Translations under genes and position numbers: made by a program | Part shown: piece by piece, positions 3,604-59,458 of the stretch | Layout: every line of letters starts with the position of its first letter | Position numbering within the stretch: position 1 is the first letter of the stretch | Notes under the pieces: generated by a model | Database searches by the model: none | Seen by the model: only the letters and a program-made list of their open reading frames with translations | What the model was told of the DNA's origin: nothing | Assembly: GCF_044324875.1 (NCBI RefSeq) | Contig: NZ_CP172185.1 | DNA length: 64,000 bases | Origin: Escherichia coli | Lineage (GTDB): Bacteria; Pseudomonadota; Gammaproteobacteria; Enterobacterales; Enterobacteriaceae | Direction: 5' to 3' (one strand)

Positions 3604-3690
3604 TGTAGGCCGGATAAGGCTTTTACGCCGCATCCGGCAGCCGTTGCCTGATGCGACGCTCGCGCGTCTTATCAGGCCTACACAGCCCTT
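3604..3690. repeat. REP/BIME-type palindromic element (gccggatg / catccggc units)
   Basis: Inverted copies of the canonical REP core (ggccggataaggc...gccgcatccggca, tgcgacgc...gcgtcttatcaggcctaca) in the infB-rbfA spacer. Confidence 0.6.
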
Positions 3691-4151: not shown

Positions 4152-5095
4152 TGAGTCGTCCTCGTCGTCGCGGTCGCGACATTAACGGCGTGTTGTTGCT
4201 GGATAAACCGCAGGGTATGTCCAGCAACGATGCGCTGCAAAAAGTGAAACGGATTTATAACGCCAACCGTGCCGGGCATACCGGTGCGCTGGACCCGCTG
4301 GCGACCGGCATGTTGCCGATTTGCCTCGGGGAAGCGACGAAGTTTTCCCAGTACCTGCTGGACTCCGACAAACGCTATCGGGTCATTGCGCGTCTTGGAC
4401 AGCGTACCGATACGTCTGACGCCGATGGACAAATCGTTGAAGAACGTCCGGTAACCTTTAGCGCAGAGCAACTGGCGGCGGCACTGGATACTTTCCGTGG
4501 CGATATCGAACAGATCCCATCGATGTATTCAGCACTGAAATACCAGGGCAAAAAACTGTACGAATATGCGCGTCAGGGCATTGAAGTACCGCGTGAAGCG
4601 CGCCCGATTACCGTTTATGAATTGCTGTTTATTCGCCACGAAGGCAATGAGCTGGAGCTGGAAATTCACTGCTCAAAAGGCACTTATATCCGCACCATTA
4701 TTGATGACCTGGGTGAAAAACTCGGTTGTGGCGCGCATGTTATTTACCTGCGTCGTCTGGCGGTAAGTAAATATCCGGTTGAACGGATGGTGACCCTGGA
4801 ACATCTGCGTGAACTGGTTGAACAAGCCGAACAGCAGAATATTCCAGCCGCGGAGTTACTTGATCCATTACTGATGCCAATGGACAGTCCAGCTTCGGAC
4901 TACCCGGTGGTGAATCTTCCGTTAACGTCTTCTGTTTACTTCAAAAATGGTAACCCGGTTCGTACATCCGGTGCGCCGCTGGAAGGACTGGTTCGCGTTA
5001 CAGAAGGTGAGAACGGCAAGTTTATCGGTATGGGCGAAATTGACGATGAAGGCCGCGTCGCGCCTCGTCGCCTGGTGGTTGAATACCCGGCGTAA
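4151..5095 (+). CDS. truB: tRNA pseudouridine-55 synthase TruB (314 aa)
   Basis: Translation matches TruB; start overlaps rbfA stop (ATGA). Confidence 0.95.
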
Positions 5096-29748: not shown

Positions 29749-30903
29749 TTATGCCTGCCACGGATGAATGATTACGCCTTGCACCACGCGGTTAACGGTG
29801 CCACTGGCTGATGGGGTATCCGGCGTATTGCCCATGTGCAGCGACTGCATCAGTGCAAACGTCTGGGCGTACATCAGGAAGCAAAATGCCTGCTCAACGT
29901 CGATAAAGTGACGTGACGGTGGCAGGATGATATGTGGACCGGCAGCGACGATGTCGCTGCTTTCCGCGGCGATGGCGATTACACGCATTGCCTGGTTGTC
30001 ACGGCGAAGTTCAGCCAGCAGATCAAGATCATACTGACGGGTGTAAGGGTGGCTGGAGACAAATACCACCACCAGCGTTTCGTTATCGACCAGCGATTTC
30101 GGGCCATGACGGAATCCGGTCGGGGAATCATAAAAGGCCGCCAGTTTACCCGCCGTCAGTTCCAGTACTTTCAGCGCCGACTCGCGTGCTGCGCCCTGTA
30201 AGCCACCGCTGCCGAGATAAACGATCCGTTTCCACGGTGCGTAACCAAACACACCTTCGCTGAAATCGCCCAGTGAGGTCAGGATCGCCTGGCAACGATC
30301 CGCCACGTCGCGGAAGCTCTGGCTGTTGATCGTCTCAGGTGCGAAAACCGCGAGGCAGCTGGCCATCATGGTGGTAATGCTGCTGGTCATCGCAAAGCCG
30401 CGATCGTGCGTTTCTGCGGGCATCAGCAGGGCAAACGCGTTGTCGCTGTTGATCGCGTTTTGGTAAAGAGCGCCCGCTTCGTTGCAGGTGATCGGCAGGT
30501 GATAGCACTCGGGTACAAATTGATTTGCCAGTTCCACGGCGGCGACGCTTTCCGGGCTGTTGCCGGATCGACCGAAGGAGATCAACAGCAGTGGATGAGC
30601 TGGATTCAGGTAGTCCATCGGATTGGTGACCAGATCGGTGGTCGGTACGGCGCTGAAGTTTTTACCGGTATGGCTGGCGAGCCACGGCGCGATGATGTCA
30701 CCGATAAATGCCGAGGTTCCGGCTCCGGTCAGGATTACCCGCAGATTCTCTTTGCGCAGTAACGGTTCAAGGAAGTTATTGAGCGCGGAACGTAGCGCGT
30801 CGATGTTGGTGAGTGAACGGATCCATGCGCGAGGCTGATGGCGGATCTCTTCTTCAGTCCATGTACCGGTTGCGGCAGCAGCAGGGGTGTAATTTTCTGG
30901 CAT
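29749..30903 (-). CDS. agaS: SIS-domain galactosamine-6-phosphate deaminase/isomerase AgaS (384 aa)
   Basis: Tandem SIS domains; first gene of the agaS operon. Confidence 0.92.
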   Translation of the reverse strand: MPENYTPAAAATGTWTEEEIRHQPRAWIRSLTNIDALRSALNNFLEPLLRKENLRVILTGAGTSAFIGDIIAPWLASHTGKNFSAVPTTDLVTNPMDYLNPAHPLLLISFGRSGNSPESVAAVELANQFVPECYHLPITCNEAGALYQNAINSDNAFALLMPAETHDRGFAMTSSITTMMASCLAVFAPETINSQSFRDVADRCQAILTSLGDFSEGVFGYAPWKRIVYLGSGGLQGAARESALKVLELTAGKLAAFYDSPTGFRHGPKSLVDNETLVVVFVSSHPYTRQYDLDLLAELRRDNQAMRVIAIAAESSDIVAAGPHIILPPSRHFIDVEQAFCFLMYAQTFALMQSLHMGNTPDTPSASGTVNRVVQGVIIHPWQA

Positions 30904-31122
30904 AACTCAATCCTTAGTCTGATGAACTTGACGTCGGGCGTTGTCGCTTTCGCTTACCTTTCGTTTCATTTCATTTGGTGATGTCTTTCGTTGATTAAAA
31001 TCTATAGAAAAGAAACTGAAAGTTCAATGGAGAAAAAAGAAATAAAACGAAATTTGTGATCGTTGAAAGAAAAGACAAGGGAAGATTAAAGAATTGCATG
31101 ATGACGTTGCTATGTGCACCGA

Positions 31123-31180
31123 TTGCCGGATGCGGCGTACCGTAGGTCGCATAAGACGCGTCAGCGTCGCATCCGACACC
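31123..31180. repeat. REP-type palindromic element in the agaA-agaS spacer
   Basis: gccggatgcggcg...cgtcgcatccgaca inverted REP cores. Confidence 0.5.
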
Positions 31181-31253
31181 GCTGCACAGATCAAAAAGAA
31201 AGAAAAAGAAAGGCCTTACGGGGGAAGTGAAGGCCCAATAAAGGAGCAAACCA

Positions 31254-32408
31254 TCAAAACGAAGCTAATTGACCCTGAATCCAGATTTGTTGCACATGCA
31301 GCCCGCTATCCAGCGCAACGACGCTGGCGCGTTTGCCCGGTTTAAGCGATCCCAGAACATCATCAACACCCAGCATACGCGCCGGATGCAGCGACGCCAT
31401 ATGGATGGCTTCCGCAGGCGTTACGTCCGTCAACTCGACCATATTGCGCACTGCCGCATCAACAGACAGCGTACTGCCCGCCAGTCCACCGGACGCGGTA
31501 CGGACAACGCCACCGTGCATCTGCACTTCTTCGCCACATAACGTATAGCGACCATCCGGCATCCCGGCTGCCTGCATCGCGTCGGTGATCAGCACGATTC
31601 TCTCTTTTGCACAGCAACAACACAGCGACATCGCCGCCGGATGCACATGATGACCATCGGCTATCAGTTCCAGCCAGGCGCGCTTGTCCGTTAATCCCGC
31701 GCCAACCATTCCCGGTTCGCGGTGATGTAAACCTGTCATCCCGTTATAGCAATGCACCAGGCCGTCGGCACCAGCGTCAAACGCGGCACGGGTTTGTTGC
31801 CAGGTCGCCGCGCTATGCCCCAGCATCACCCGTACGTTTTGCTGTTTAAGATGGCGGATGGCCTGCAATGCCCCTTCTTTTTCCGGTGCCAGCGCTACCA
31901 CGCGCAAGGTGTGCTGAGAAACGGCAATCAATTGATCCAGCTCGGCAATTTCCAGCTCGCGAAACAGCTCCGGCGGATGCGCGCCTTTATTCTGCGGCGT
32001 GAAGTACGGTCCTTCGAGATAACTCCCCAGTACTTGCGCACCAGGTCCGCCGCGTTGGCAACGTTGAGCAATACGTTTCAGCGCCGCATGAATGGTATTA
32101 AGCGGCGCGGTTACGGTGGTCGGTAACCAACTGCCGACACCTTCGCGTGCCTTGTGCATTGCCAGCTTGTCGAGCACATCCGGCGCGTCATCCATTACAT
32201 CAACGCCCGCACCACCGTGTACATGGGTGTCGATGTAAGCGGGGCAGAGCAGTTCCGCATCGCGTTCAGTCACGCCCACTGGAATCGGTTCGATTGCTGC
32301 GATTACACCGTCAGCAATACGCAACTGATGGTCATCGAGCCATCCCTCTTCAGTCAGCAGCCTTCTGGCGCGCAAAACGGGTGTCATATTCCTTCCTCGA
32401 CCGGACAT
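31254..32408 (-). CDS. agaA: N-acetylgalactosamine-6-phosphate deacetylase AgaA, full length
   Basis: NagA-family amidohydrolase with metal-binding His motifs; full-length here (K-12 carries a truncated agaA as I recall); start may be an internal ATG. Confidence 0.88.
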   Translation of the reverse strand: MSGRGRNMTPVLRARRLLTEEGWLDDHQLRIADGVIAAIEPIPVGVTERDAELLCPAYIDTHVHGGAGVDVMDDAPDVLDKLAMHKAREGVGSWLPTTVTAPLNTIHAALKRIAQRCQRGGPGAQVLGSYLEGPYFTPQNKGAHPPELFRELEIAELDQLIAVSQHTLRVVALAPEKEGALQAIRHLKQQNVRVMLGHSAATWQQTRAAFDAGADGLVHCYNGMTGLHHREPGMVGAGLTDKRAWLELIADGHHVHPAAMSLCCCCAKERIVLITDAMQAAGMPDGRYTLCGEEVQMHGGVVRTASGGLAGSTLSVDAAVRNMVELTDVTPAEAIHMASLHPARMLGVDDVLGSLKPGKRASVVALDSGLHVQQIWIQGQLASF

Positions 32409-34989: not shown

Positions 34990-36270
34990 TTATTGGCCTT
35001 CACAGGCTGTGTGGTACTGCGCCAGGATGTCCTGAATATGGTTGATAATGAGTTCCCGTGGCGTCGGTTGCAGCTTGCCGGAGCGAACTTTCACGTATTG
35101 CAGCGGCAGATACTGGCTGATGAGCGGTAGCGGAATTGGTGAATCCGCCAGATTACGAACCAGATGAGCGAAAGCGTCATCAATCTGGCTGTCCGGCCAG
35201 TAATAGCGCACGCGATCCGAGTAGCTATAACCACGCGCCAGGCGACGTGCGTTGCCGTCACCGTGGTAGTGGCTTTGCCAGTATTCCGGGCGGTCGAGCA
35301 TCACGTTTTCCAGCACCTGACGCAGACCGGAACAGGCTTTCGCTGGTACCAGTTCTTCTTCAATCGCCGCCAGAGAGAACAGAGCTTCACGCAGGGCGAA
35401 GGTCAGCGCCGGGCCAACTTTCAGAATGGCAAAGTGGTCAATCACCAGCTGGCGCAGCGATTGCGGCGTTTGATAATCGGTAGAGTGCGCTTCGAAAATC
35501 AGCGTTTCGTAGTTTTCGACCATCTGGCTTAAGGCGCTCGCTTTGGCGGGCTGATAATCAATAACGTTGGTGTGATCGAATTCGACGCCGGGTTGAACCA
35601 CCAGGGCAATGATGCGTGACCAGATGGCATTCAAACCTTGCTTTTCAAAGGCGTGACGATGGGCTTCCAGCGTGGCGCGGGCGGCATCCGGCGTGGTGAC
35701 CGCCAGCTCGCTTAAGGTTTCATGCGCGCCGCCAGGTACCGGTACTTCGGTACCAATGACATACTCCAGATCGGCTTCGCCAAAGTGTTCAAGACAGGTT
35801 TCTTCCGCCACTTTCGCCAGACGTGCGGCGCGTTCAGCCACGATGTCATCAGTTAAGGGAATTGGATCGTCCTGACAGGACATGCTGCAATCAAGGTGAA
35901 TTTTTTTGAATCCTGCCGCCACGTAGCTTTTAATCAAATCATCGGCATTGGCCATTGCCTGAGCGGCTGGCAGGTTTTGCCAGCGGTTTGGCCCCAGATG
36001 GTCGCCACCCAGAATCAACGCATCCTGTGGGAAATTCAACGAGTCGGCGAGCTGACAAACAAAGCCGCGAAAATCGGCGGGCGTCATTCCGGTATAACCG
36101 CCGAACTGGTCCACCTGATTGGAGGTTGCTTCAATCAGTAACGGCGTTTGGTTTGCACTGGCGTAGCGGATTGCAGCTTCCAGCACCAGCGGATGTGCGG
36201 AACAAACGGCATAAATCCCATTTGTTTTGCCCTCTTTGTGCTGTCTCACCATTTCTGTCAGATGTTTCAC
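34990..36270 (-). CDS. kbaZ: Tagatose-6-phosphate kinase-like protein KbaZ/AgaZ (426 aa)
   Basis: GatZ/KbaZ family; first gene of the agaZVWEFA operon. Confidence 0.92.
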
Positions 36271-36518
36271 TTTCCTCTCCAGTTCAGATTACTGCGATAT
36301 TAATCTTTCGTTTTGTTTCAGTTGATACTGCGCCATGGTGAGATAAAAATAAAACGAAAGATAATAGTTTTCTGATCTGATTCACAAAAGAAACATAATG
36401 AAAGCCACTGAAACGAGAGTAGCTTGCGCCAATGGGTAAGGTGGGCTTGCATTTGCTTAATAGAAAGGCGTTAATAGGCAAAACGAAATGAAACGAAAGT
36501 TTTACGAAAGGACTTACT
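36271..36518. promoter_or_regulatory. Divergent kbaZ/agaR control region with repeated AgaR-operator-like motifs
   Basis: Multiple copies of (a)aacgaaag / ctttcgttt-type repeats (aaaataaaacgaaag, atgaaacgaaag, tacgaaag), typical of DeoR-type AgaR operators. Confidence 0.55.
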
Positions 36519-37328
36519 ATGAGTAATACCGACGCTTCAGGTGAGAAGCGAATGACAGGCACCAGCGAGCGACGAGAACAGATCATTCAGCGTCTGCGAC
36601 AGCAAGGGAGTGTGCAGGTTAACGATCTGTCGGCATTGTATGGCGTATCTACTGTGACGATCCGCAACGATCTGGCGTTTCTGGAAAAGCAGGGGATCGC
36701 TGTGCGTGCCTATGGCGGCGCGTTGATCTGCGATAGCACGACGCCGCCAGTCGAGCCATCAGTGGAAGATAAAAGCGCGCTGAACACCGCGATGAAACGC
36801 AGCGTTGCGAAAGCTGCCGTTGAGTTGATTCAGCCAGGTCATCGGGTGATCCTCGATTCCGGGACCACCACTTTTGAGATTGCTCGTCTGATGCGCAAGC
36901 ACACTGACGTAATTGCGATGACCAACGGTATGAACGTGGCTAATGCGTTGCTGGAAGCGGAAGGCGTTGAGCTGCTGATGACCGGCGGGCATTTGCGCCG
37001 TCAGTCGCAATCTTTTTACGGCGATCAGGCTGAGCAATCGCTGCAAAATTACCACTTCGATATGCTGTTTCTTGGTGTAGATGCGATCGATCTGGAGCGC
37101 GGCGTCAGCACGCATAATGAAGATGAAGCCCGTTTAAACCGCCGGATGTGCGAAGTTGCGGAACGGATCATCGTGGTCACCGATTCCAGTAAATTCAATC
37201 GTTCCAGTTTACATAAGATCATTGATACTCAACGTATCGACATGATCATTGTTGATGAAGGCATTCCTGCGGATAGCCTGGAAGGGCTGCGAAAGGCTGG
37301 GGTTGAAGTGATTCTGGTCGGGGAGTGA
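36519..37328 (+). CDS. agaR: DeoR-family transcriptional repressor AgaR (269 aa)
   Basis: N-terminal HTH and C-terminal DeoR sugar-binding domain; divergent from kbaZ. Confidence 0.93.

Positions 37329-59351: not shown

Positions 59352-59458
<107 letters not shown>

Follow-up and report, generated by a model that had tools for sequence, protein, structure and literature searches.

A gap of 350 nt separates agaA from agaS in the aga/gam cluster of Escherichia coli, and this spacer raises the question of whether agaS is served by an internal promoter with its own repressor sites, as the initial annotation had proposed, or is reached only by transcription from further upstream. Our analysis of the window (the whole 64,000-nucleotide stretch of E. 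coli DNA) indicated that the spacer very probably forms the boundary between two aga/gam transcription units and contains an internal sigma-70 promoter, PS, that is repressed by AgaR. The complete cluster lies inside the window on the minus strand, and the agaA-agaS spacer occupies exactly 30904-31253, the extent initially given to it, with the agaS ATG and the agaA stop codon fitting precisely at its two ends. In the RefSeq genome of E. coli strain 7/2, which is 100% identical over the region, the flanking genes are annotated as agaS and nagA (= agaA), and the cluster is laid out as kbaZ-agaVWEFA and agaS-kbaY-agaBCDI with a divergent agaR. Of 5426 complete E. coli genomes, 5307 contain the spacer. 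The genes and translation signals that frame it are listed below.

34990-36270, minus strand: kbaZ, an open reading frame named from the annotation of the identical genome.
36519-37328, plus strand (divergent): agaR, with Pfam HTH_DeoR and DeoRC domains, 5.3 kb from the spacer.
31254-32408, minus strand: agaA, with a Pfam Amidohydro_1 (amidohydrolase) domain and a nagA/AgaA-type deacetylase annotation in the identical genome.
31254-31256, minus strand: TGA stop codon of agaA (reading frame 31254-32408), the upstream boundary of the spacer.
30911-30916, minus strand: TAAGGA, Shine-Dalgarno sequence of agaS; in every genus AAGGA precedes the ATG by 7-8 nt.
30901-30903, minus strand: ATG start codon of agaS (reading frame 29749-30903).
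29749-30903, minus strand: agaS, with two stretches of Pfam SIS domain and an agaS annotation in the identical genome.

Tandem ctttc/gaaag motifs resembling those of the kbaZ/agaR control region had been noticed in the spacer, and the counts bear this out. TTTC and GAAA tetramers together number 16 in its 350 nt against 4.4 ± 2.2 in sliding 350-nt windows across the 64 kb, a count reached by none of 2000 composition-matched shuffles, and elsewhere in the window an equal density was found only in the kbaZ/agaR control region. The 24-nt AgaR binding consensus WRMMTTTCRTTTYRTTTYNYTTKK, which reportedly goes back to Ray and Larson in 2004, was matched with no more than 3 mismatches six times in the 64-kb window against an expectation of 0.14, with three matches in the spacer, three in the kbaZ/agaR region and none elsewhere. 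The 14-nt AgaR core gave nine matches in the window against 0.79 expected, eight of them within the two aga control regions. Two strong sites in the spacer, designated O-up and O-down, and one weak unit were distinguished.

31033-31056, minus strand (orientation of agaS): AgaR operator O-up, CAAATTTCGTTTTATTTCTTTTTT, with 1 mismatch to the consensus and scores of 23.9 and 36.1 bits.
30955-30978, plus strand (inverted relative to agaS): AgaR operator O-down, TACCTTTCGTTTCATTTCATTTGG, with 0 mismatches and scores of 22.9 and 34.0 bits.
31065-31074, minus strand: CTTTTCTTTC, a pyrimidine repeat and weak operator-like unit upstream of GATCACA, recognized by sequence inspection.

The check suggested with the initial annotation, a scan with a weight matrix built from the kbaZ/agaR repeats, placed these two sites first. 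The matrix was trained solely on four sites within 36302-36502, the fourth of which had been entered 2 nt out of register, and over ~128,000 positions its highest non-training scores fell at 31033-31056 (23.9 bits) and 30955-30978 (22.9 bits), with 14.8 bits as the best score outside the aga regions. The result was confirmed by an independent, reciprocal matrix trained solely on agaS-promoter sites of many genera (99.99th percentile, 3.4 bits), which gave the four kbaZ/agaR sites scores of 20-28 bits and no non-aga site more than 9.0. The first 15 nt of O-down, CTTTCGTTTCATTTC, are identical to the PkbaZ AgaR site in Table S3 of PMC8667592, where the 20-nt PkbaZ site CTTTCGTTTCATTTTCGTTT was on its own sufficient for AgaR repression of a synthetic promoter. 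The AgaR sites lie 52-153 nt upstream of agaS, and the gene for the cognate repressor, agaR, is in the same window. Judged by these matches, the two spacer sites are AgaR operators.

To see how widely this arrangement occurs, we used a comparative scan with one genome per species, which yielded 71 agaS loci from ~20 enteric genera, across which the agaF-(agaA)-spacer-agaS-kbaY synteny was kept. The O-up/O-down pair was present in fixed orientation in 71 of 72 agaS upstream regions, with the forward core TTTCGTTTTATTTC ~150 nt and the inverted core GAAAYGAAACGAAAG ~75 nt upstream of the agaS ATG, and the core-to-core distance was 79-81 nt in 66 of the 71 paired sequences. Genera with the pair included Escherichia, Citrobacter, Klebsiella, Enterobacter, Kluyvera, Raoultella, Salmonella diarizonae, Yersinia, Buttiauxella, Cedecea and others, and the operator module was retained in loci that lack agaA and have agaF upstream instead. 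In two Lelliottia loci the operators are 70-71 nt apart, shorter by about one helical turn, a hint that helical phase matters. Each position of the O-up core is 84-100% conserved. In the alignment, one unbroken conserved block runs from 31061 to ~30996 through GATCACA, O-up, ATTGAAC, CTTTCgaTTTCTTTTC and TATAGATTTT, and is followed by a variable stretch, O-down, a variable leader, AAGGA and the ATG. Units of CCTTTCCTTTC that resemble CTTTTCTTTC occupy the same place in Enterobacter and Lelliottia, and conservation of the CTTTTCTTTC repeat was not seen in all genera of the cross-genus alignment. The matches, their rarity, the conservation of sequence, spacing and orientation across genera and the presence of the repressor gene were all observed directly in this analysis, and the cross-genus footprint reveals a cleaner architecture than a single-species one, with inverted operators ~80 nt apart around a weak core promoter.

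The candidate elements of this core promoter lie between the two operators.

31022-31027, minus strand: TTGAAC, predicted -35 hexamer within a conserved ATTGAAC block, matching 4 of 6 consensus positions.
31007-31022, minus strand: CTTTCAGTTTCTTTTC, the stretch between -35 and -10, a weak AgaR-like repeat conserved as highly as the operators.
30999-31004, minus strand: TAGATT, predicted -10 hexamer, 17 nt from TTGAAC and within the conserved TATAGATTTT.

Together, TTGAAC-17-TAGATT matches 8 of 12 sigma-70 consensus positions, and both predicted hexamers are conserved across genera; variants of TAGATT retain the initial TA and the final T, which is consistent with a -10 element. A promoter scan of 30700-31450 with a threshold of at least 9/12 reported none, a silence explained by the threshold, which excludes an 8/12 core promoter. 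The stretch between the hexamers scored 3.3 bits in its E. coli form and 10.5 bits in the form of other genera, against a 99.99th percentile of 3.4. We predict a transcription start near 30992 (~3281887 in K-12 NC_000913.3), from which O-up would extend from about -64 to -41 and O-down from about +15 to +38. A search of the literature on the agaS promoter and on genome-wide start sites gave no usable agaS start. The 2004 abstract of Ray and Larson is said to place the AgaR sites "upstream from the start sites", wording that would fit O-up and not O-down if transcription starts at ~30992, so that either the wording is loose or the start lies further downstream.

For AgaR binding and for the activity of PS we relied on published work. 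The promoters PR, PZ and PS appear on the map of PMC3668189, and the same article reports AgaR binding at the agaS promoter and a ~20-fold induction by GalNAc of single-copy PS-lacZ, credited there to Ray & Larson 2004. Deletion of agaR raised agaS expression 175-fold by qRT-PCR (PMC3668189 Table 2), and AgaR binds tandem repeats of the agaZ, agaR and agaS intergenic regions (PMC5018945). It could still be argued that the spacer is promoterless, that its T-rich repeats are debris of a terminator and a REP element, and that agaS is expressed by read-through from PZ, given that the scan found no consensus sigma-70 site and that the spacer contains both a REP and a hairpin of terminator-like type. 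We consider this scarcely credible, since the operator pair and the core-promoter block are kept in sequence, spacing and orientation in ~20 genera, and the published PS-lacZ fusions were active and inducible in isolation. The proposal of an internal agaS promoter with its own repressor sites therefore stands, on exceptional operators conserved in ~20 genera and on the published PS-lacZ activity. In view of the agreement with PMC3668189 and PMC5018945, the spacer is already known: it is the PS promoter described there as controlled by AgaR, accompanied by a REP of the ordinary kind. To this the present analysis adds the conserved terminator-like hairpin after agaA with its operator-like tail, the operator-like stretch between -35 and -10, and two REP haplotypes in E. 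coli.

At the upstream end of the conserved block lies an element of a different kind.

31055-31061, minus strand: GATCACA heptamer, a CRP-type half-site (TGTGATC on the plus strand), 83-97% conserved in 70 unique sequences.

The TGTGA at 31055-31059 (plus strand) had initially been described as a half-site that may be a CRP site, cautious wording that suits the conservation of GATCACA. The full 16-mer matches 7 of 10 CRP core positions, and the window holds 193 matches of that quality where 221 would be expected, which is chance level; a full symmetric site (TGTGA-N6-TCACA), of which one half is perfect, was therefore rejected. We nevertheless entertain, tentatively, the possibility that cAMP-CRP additionally activates PS through TGTGATC/GATCACA, which would complement AgaR repression and not replace it. 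The strong conservation of GATCACA(nT) speaks for this, as the heptamer lies outside the AgaR consensus at other operators. GATCACAttt is the extended right half of an ideal CRP site, and the spacer heptamer fits it. Moreover, the PZ region carries a CRP site with 1 mismatch (36371-36386) at the equivalent position between forward AgaR sites, and the PS core promoter is weak at 8/12, the spacer being absent from the list of promoters selected by the RpoD holoenzyme alone (PMC3946193). The centre of the site, at ~31062.5, would lie at about -70.5/-71.5, a class I position that hinges on the predicted start. Against CRP activation, besides the chance-level frequency, the other half matches at only 2 of 5 positions and lies in an unconserved region, where only 6% and 11% of sequences have the G and the A of TGTGA, respectively. 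TCACA itself varies within Escherichia, being TCACG in O157:H7 and TCGCA in E. whittamii and falling in a 7-nt deletion in one cryptic clade. The 2004 study, in addition, reportedly ascribed CRP dependence to PZ only.

Further upstream, directly after agaA, we identified two elements resembling an intrinsic terminator.

31211-31236, minus strand: GC-rich, intrinsic-terminator-like hairpin with an RNA fold of -10.2 kcal/mol; the stem of 8-9 bp is interrupted by one bulge and closes a 7-nt loop.
31192-31215, minus strand: pyrimidine tail GGCCTTTCTTTTTCTTTCTTTTTG, a putative terminator U-tract with 3 mismatches to the AgaR consensus.

The hairpin, read from 31236 to 31211, is followed directly by the T-rich UUUCUUUUUCUUUCUUUUU. 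This hairpin was absent from the initial annotation, and the terminator scan of 30700-31450 did not report it. Its conservation was assessed by folding each sequence anchored on the tail, as MAFFT/RNAalifold gave only 4 pairs with the arms mis-registered. Of the 57 unique sequences folded in this way, 45 have the orthologous hairpin immediately against the T/C tail. Through compensatory changes, the outer helix takes 21 distinct forms among the 57 hairpins, which fold with a mean dG of -14.5 kcal/mol, compared with -7.1 for shuffles. Hairpin and tail thus bear the terminator-like signature of a conserved intrinsic terminator, which is predicted to end kbaZ-agaVWEFA.

The tail itself invites a second interpretation. 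Across ~20 genera the orthologous tail CCTTTCTTTTCCTTTC is near-invariant, and the stem and the downstream sequence vary. The E. coli tail scores 18.8 and 18.3 bits with the two independent matrices, far over background (99.99th percentile, 3.4). We regard it as possible, though less likely than not, that the tract at 31215-31192 serves as a U-tract and at the same time as a distal AgaR operator, the third in the spacer, which with the repeats between -35 and -10 would support a higher-order or looped complex. Beyond the scores with both matrices, such a role would suit the fixity of CCTTTCTTTTCCTTTC beside a covarying stem and drifting downstream sequence, as well as the variants, which retain CTTTC units with a 5-nt period and include a canonical core, TTTCATTTCATTTCG, in one Enterobacter and (CTTTCG)x5 in Kosakonia. 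On the other hand, the two core purines (R in TTTCRTTTYRTTTY; G and A, 97% in O-up) are pyrimidines in the tail, the canonical tail of other genera reaches only 11.2 bits, and termination needs a T-rich tract anyway. The distance to O-up also varies, from ~47 nt in Enterobacter through ~100 in most genera to 157 in E. coli, where the REP insertion accounts for it. Were a third operator real, a single sequence would act both as an RNA terminator tract and as a DNA operator. The composite proposal, in which the tail and the CTTTC spacer between -35 and -10 provide extra AgaR contacts in an extended or looped complex, with GATCACA as a one-sided site within it for CRP or another factor, appears to us rather doubtful. 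All three elements, namely the invariant tail of the terminator, the promoter spacer with its likeness to an operator and the conserved GATCACA, could refine models of repression by the DeoR family.

Between the terminator-like elements and the conserved promoter block of PS lies a repeat.

31142-31177, minus strand: REP element, full unit, with 3 mismatches to the REP consensus and 0 such matches expected.
31124-31137, minus strand: partial inverted REP arm CGCCGCATCCGGCA, pairing with 31165-31178 in an inverted repeat that is 86% complementary.

The reported REP palindrome is therefore genuine, both by its match to the consensus and by its copy number, since across 5425 E. coli genomes the median number of places with the 73-nt REP segment is 11; two further REPs lie in the 64-kb window. 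The REP and the partial arm together fold at -31.5 kcal/mol with a z of only -1.65, and Rfam naRNA4, which is REP-derived, gave a weak sub-threshold match (E=0.16). Two haplotypes were distinguished, both with spacers of ~348-350 nt. Haplotype A, with one REP and a half unit, occurs in the window strain, several E. coli strains, E. whittamii and cryptic clades, and haplotype B, with two complete inverted REPs, occurs in K-12 and O157:H7. These two haplotypes explain the 90-92% and 95-100% identity classes of the spacer in E. coli. In other genera the REP is missing and the spacer measures ~260-315 nt. The REP is a dispersed extragenic repeat and an Escherichia-specific polymorphic insertion.

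Most of the spacer is also spanned by a reading frame.

30995-31249, minus strand: Phe/Leu-rich 84-codon open reading frame starting with TTG.

In the window strain this frame is open and could be taken to encode a small Phe/Leu-rich protein, which we consider extremely improbable. Premature stops or frameshifts disrupt it in five of eight other Escherichia alleles (K-12, O157:H7, EH01, SFAD3 and Escherichia sp. MOD1), a Pfam search of its translation returned no match, and its GC3 is 0.47 versus 0.58-0.65 in the adjacent genes. The frame is composed of the terminator, REP and operator sequences. A coding role was rejected on the broken frames, the missing Pfam match and the low GC3, in keeping with the original view that the frame is probably not coding.

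Combining these elements, we propose that PS drives agaS-kbaY-agaBCDI under control of the DeoR-family repressor AgaR. Read along the minus strand, the order would be the agaA stop codon, the hairpin with its pyrimidine tail as a terminator-like end of kbaZ-agaVWEFA, the REP with the partial inverted REP, GATCACA, O-up, TTGAAC, the 17-nt operator-like spacer, TAGATT, a start near 30992, the inverted O-down, a ~90-nt unstructured leader, the Shine-Dalgarno sequence and the agaS ATG. Oligomers of AgaR would occupy O-up and O-down, probably also touching the repeats of the promoter spacer, and by bracketing the weak core promoter would block the binding or escape of RNA polymerase until growth on GalNAc or GalN releases AgaR. 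The geometry of this bracketing is a prediction, and the ~80 bp from O-up to O-down amount to 7.6 helical turns, a non-integral number that does not readily suggest a simple in-phase loop. The predicted agaS leader folded into less structure than its shuffles, and a structured leader was accordingly dropped; an Rfam scan of the spacer found no riboswitch or sRNA family. With an intact PS control region, agaS-kbaY-agaBCDI of this strain should be inducible by GalNAc or GalN and repressed by AgaR as in E. coli C, although the PS finding carries little weight beyond annotation.

The closest known system is PS of K-12 (Ray & Larson 2004), which has the same locus, repressor and operon. The promoter-proximal 200 bp are almost identical, and the operator cores, TTGAAC and TATAGATTTT are invariant. 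The two strains differ in the REP region, with two inverted REPs in K-12 and one REP plus a half REP in the window strain, and in the upstream genes, as agaA and agaW-E-F are deleted in K-12 and intact upstream of the spacer in the window strain. The repeat itself resembles the REP/BIME elements of E. coli in its consensus, its imperfect palindrome, its intergenic position after the 3' end of a gene and its many copies, and departs from the typical form in that the second inverted unit is reduced to one arm in haplotype A.

Within the same window, the PZ/PR control region (kbaZ-agaR, 36271-36518), with four sites of 20-28 bits, shares the operator motif with PS. PZ and PS are also alike in layout, with a single inverted site placed closest to the gene, after the forward sites, and both include a CRP-type element, which at PZ lies between the forward sites. 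They differ in the distance of the inverted pair (~40 nt at PZ versus ~80 nt at PS), in the quality of the CRP element (near-consensus with 1 mismatch at PZ, a half-site only at PS) and in context, as PS stands behind a terminator-like hairpin and a REP and PZ/PR lies in a divergent promoter region.

More broadly, multi-operator control is a feature of repressors of the DeoR/GlpR family, as with GlpR at glpD and glpACB and DeoR at deo. Like GlpR and DeoR, AgaR is an oligomeric repressor with HTH_DeoR and DeoRC domains that acts through several operators, placed around the promoter and downstream of it. At PS, AgaR might bind cooperatively or form a loop. The half-sites set AgaR apart, being direct repeats of TTTC(R) with a 5-nt period, whereas those of GlpR and DeoR are palindromes.

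Conservation in PS, the AgaR-repressed promoter of agaS, extended to the interval between its predicted -35 and -10 elements and to a heptamer adjoining the AgaR operator O-up:

31007-31022, minus strand: segment between the predicted -35 and -10, CTTTCAGTTTCTTTTC
31055-31061, minus strand: GATCACA, directly 5′ of O-up, with 83-97% cross-genus conservation

The first of these segments was weakly operator-like and was as strongly conserved as the operators, a level unusual in promoter spacers. Variation in the GATCACA motif was found in O157:H7, where it is altered to TCACG, in E. whittamii, where it reads TCGCA, and in Escherichia sp. MOD1-EC7003, in which a 7-nt deletion removes it. In two Lelliottia loci (L039 and L041), ~70-150 nt 5′ of agaS, the distance from O-up to the inverted AgaR operator O-down was 70-71 nt compared with the usual 79-81 nt, a reduction of about one helical turn, with the bases lost from the variable segment 3′ of the -10.

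At the other end of the agaA-agaS spacer, comparison over ~20 genera revealed a terminator-like element with a covarying stem and a tail, CCTTTCTTTT(C/T)CTTTC, that showed nearly no variation:

31192-31236, minus strand: terminator-like hairpin with conserved pyrimidine tail, 3′ of agaA

The tail scored 18 bits as an AgaR-like site. In Kosakonia pseudosacchari, five tandem copies of CTTTCG occupy the place of the terminator tail, ~230-270 nt 5′ of agaS.

A conserved near-palindrome, GTCTGATGTGGAATTCACAAGAC, adjoins the 5′ side of the agaS Shine-Dalgarno sequence (2462-2486 in locus L009) and recurred at the corresponding place in loci of Citrobacter, Klebsiella, Enterobacter, Kluyvera, Raoultella and Salmonella, whereas Escherichia carries unrelated sequence there. 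Folding yielded no significant structure in the agaS leader.

The REP region occurs in E. coli as two structural haplotypes, in which the second inverted REP is either half or full (window 31080-31140 versus 4735-4800 in the K-12 locus, L002), and which exchange ~30 nt of differing sequence while overall spacer length stays near-constant at 348-350 nt. Identity classes, read through a few representatives, suggest shares of ~54% versus 46% of complete genomes. The K-12 spacer (L002 4627-4976; NC_000913.3 3281626-3281975) contains two inverted REPs with a folding energy of -43.8 kcal/mol (z = -3.5), and the K-12 RefSeq feature table lists no repeat_region in that interval. REP matches elsewhere in the window were:

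3646-3681, plus strand: REP, 0 mismatches to consensus
59356-59391, plus strand: REP, 2 mismatches to consensus

The divergent kbaZ/agaR control region has a layout parallel to that of PS, with four AgaR-type sites at 36302-36502, three forward and one inverted, the inverted site being closest to kbaZ, together with a CRP core:

36371-36386: CRP core of the kbaZ/agaR region, 1 mismatch

The two regions differ in the distance separating the inverted pair, which is ~40 nt in the kbaZ/agaR region but ~80 nt at PS.
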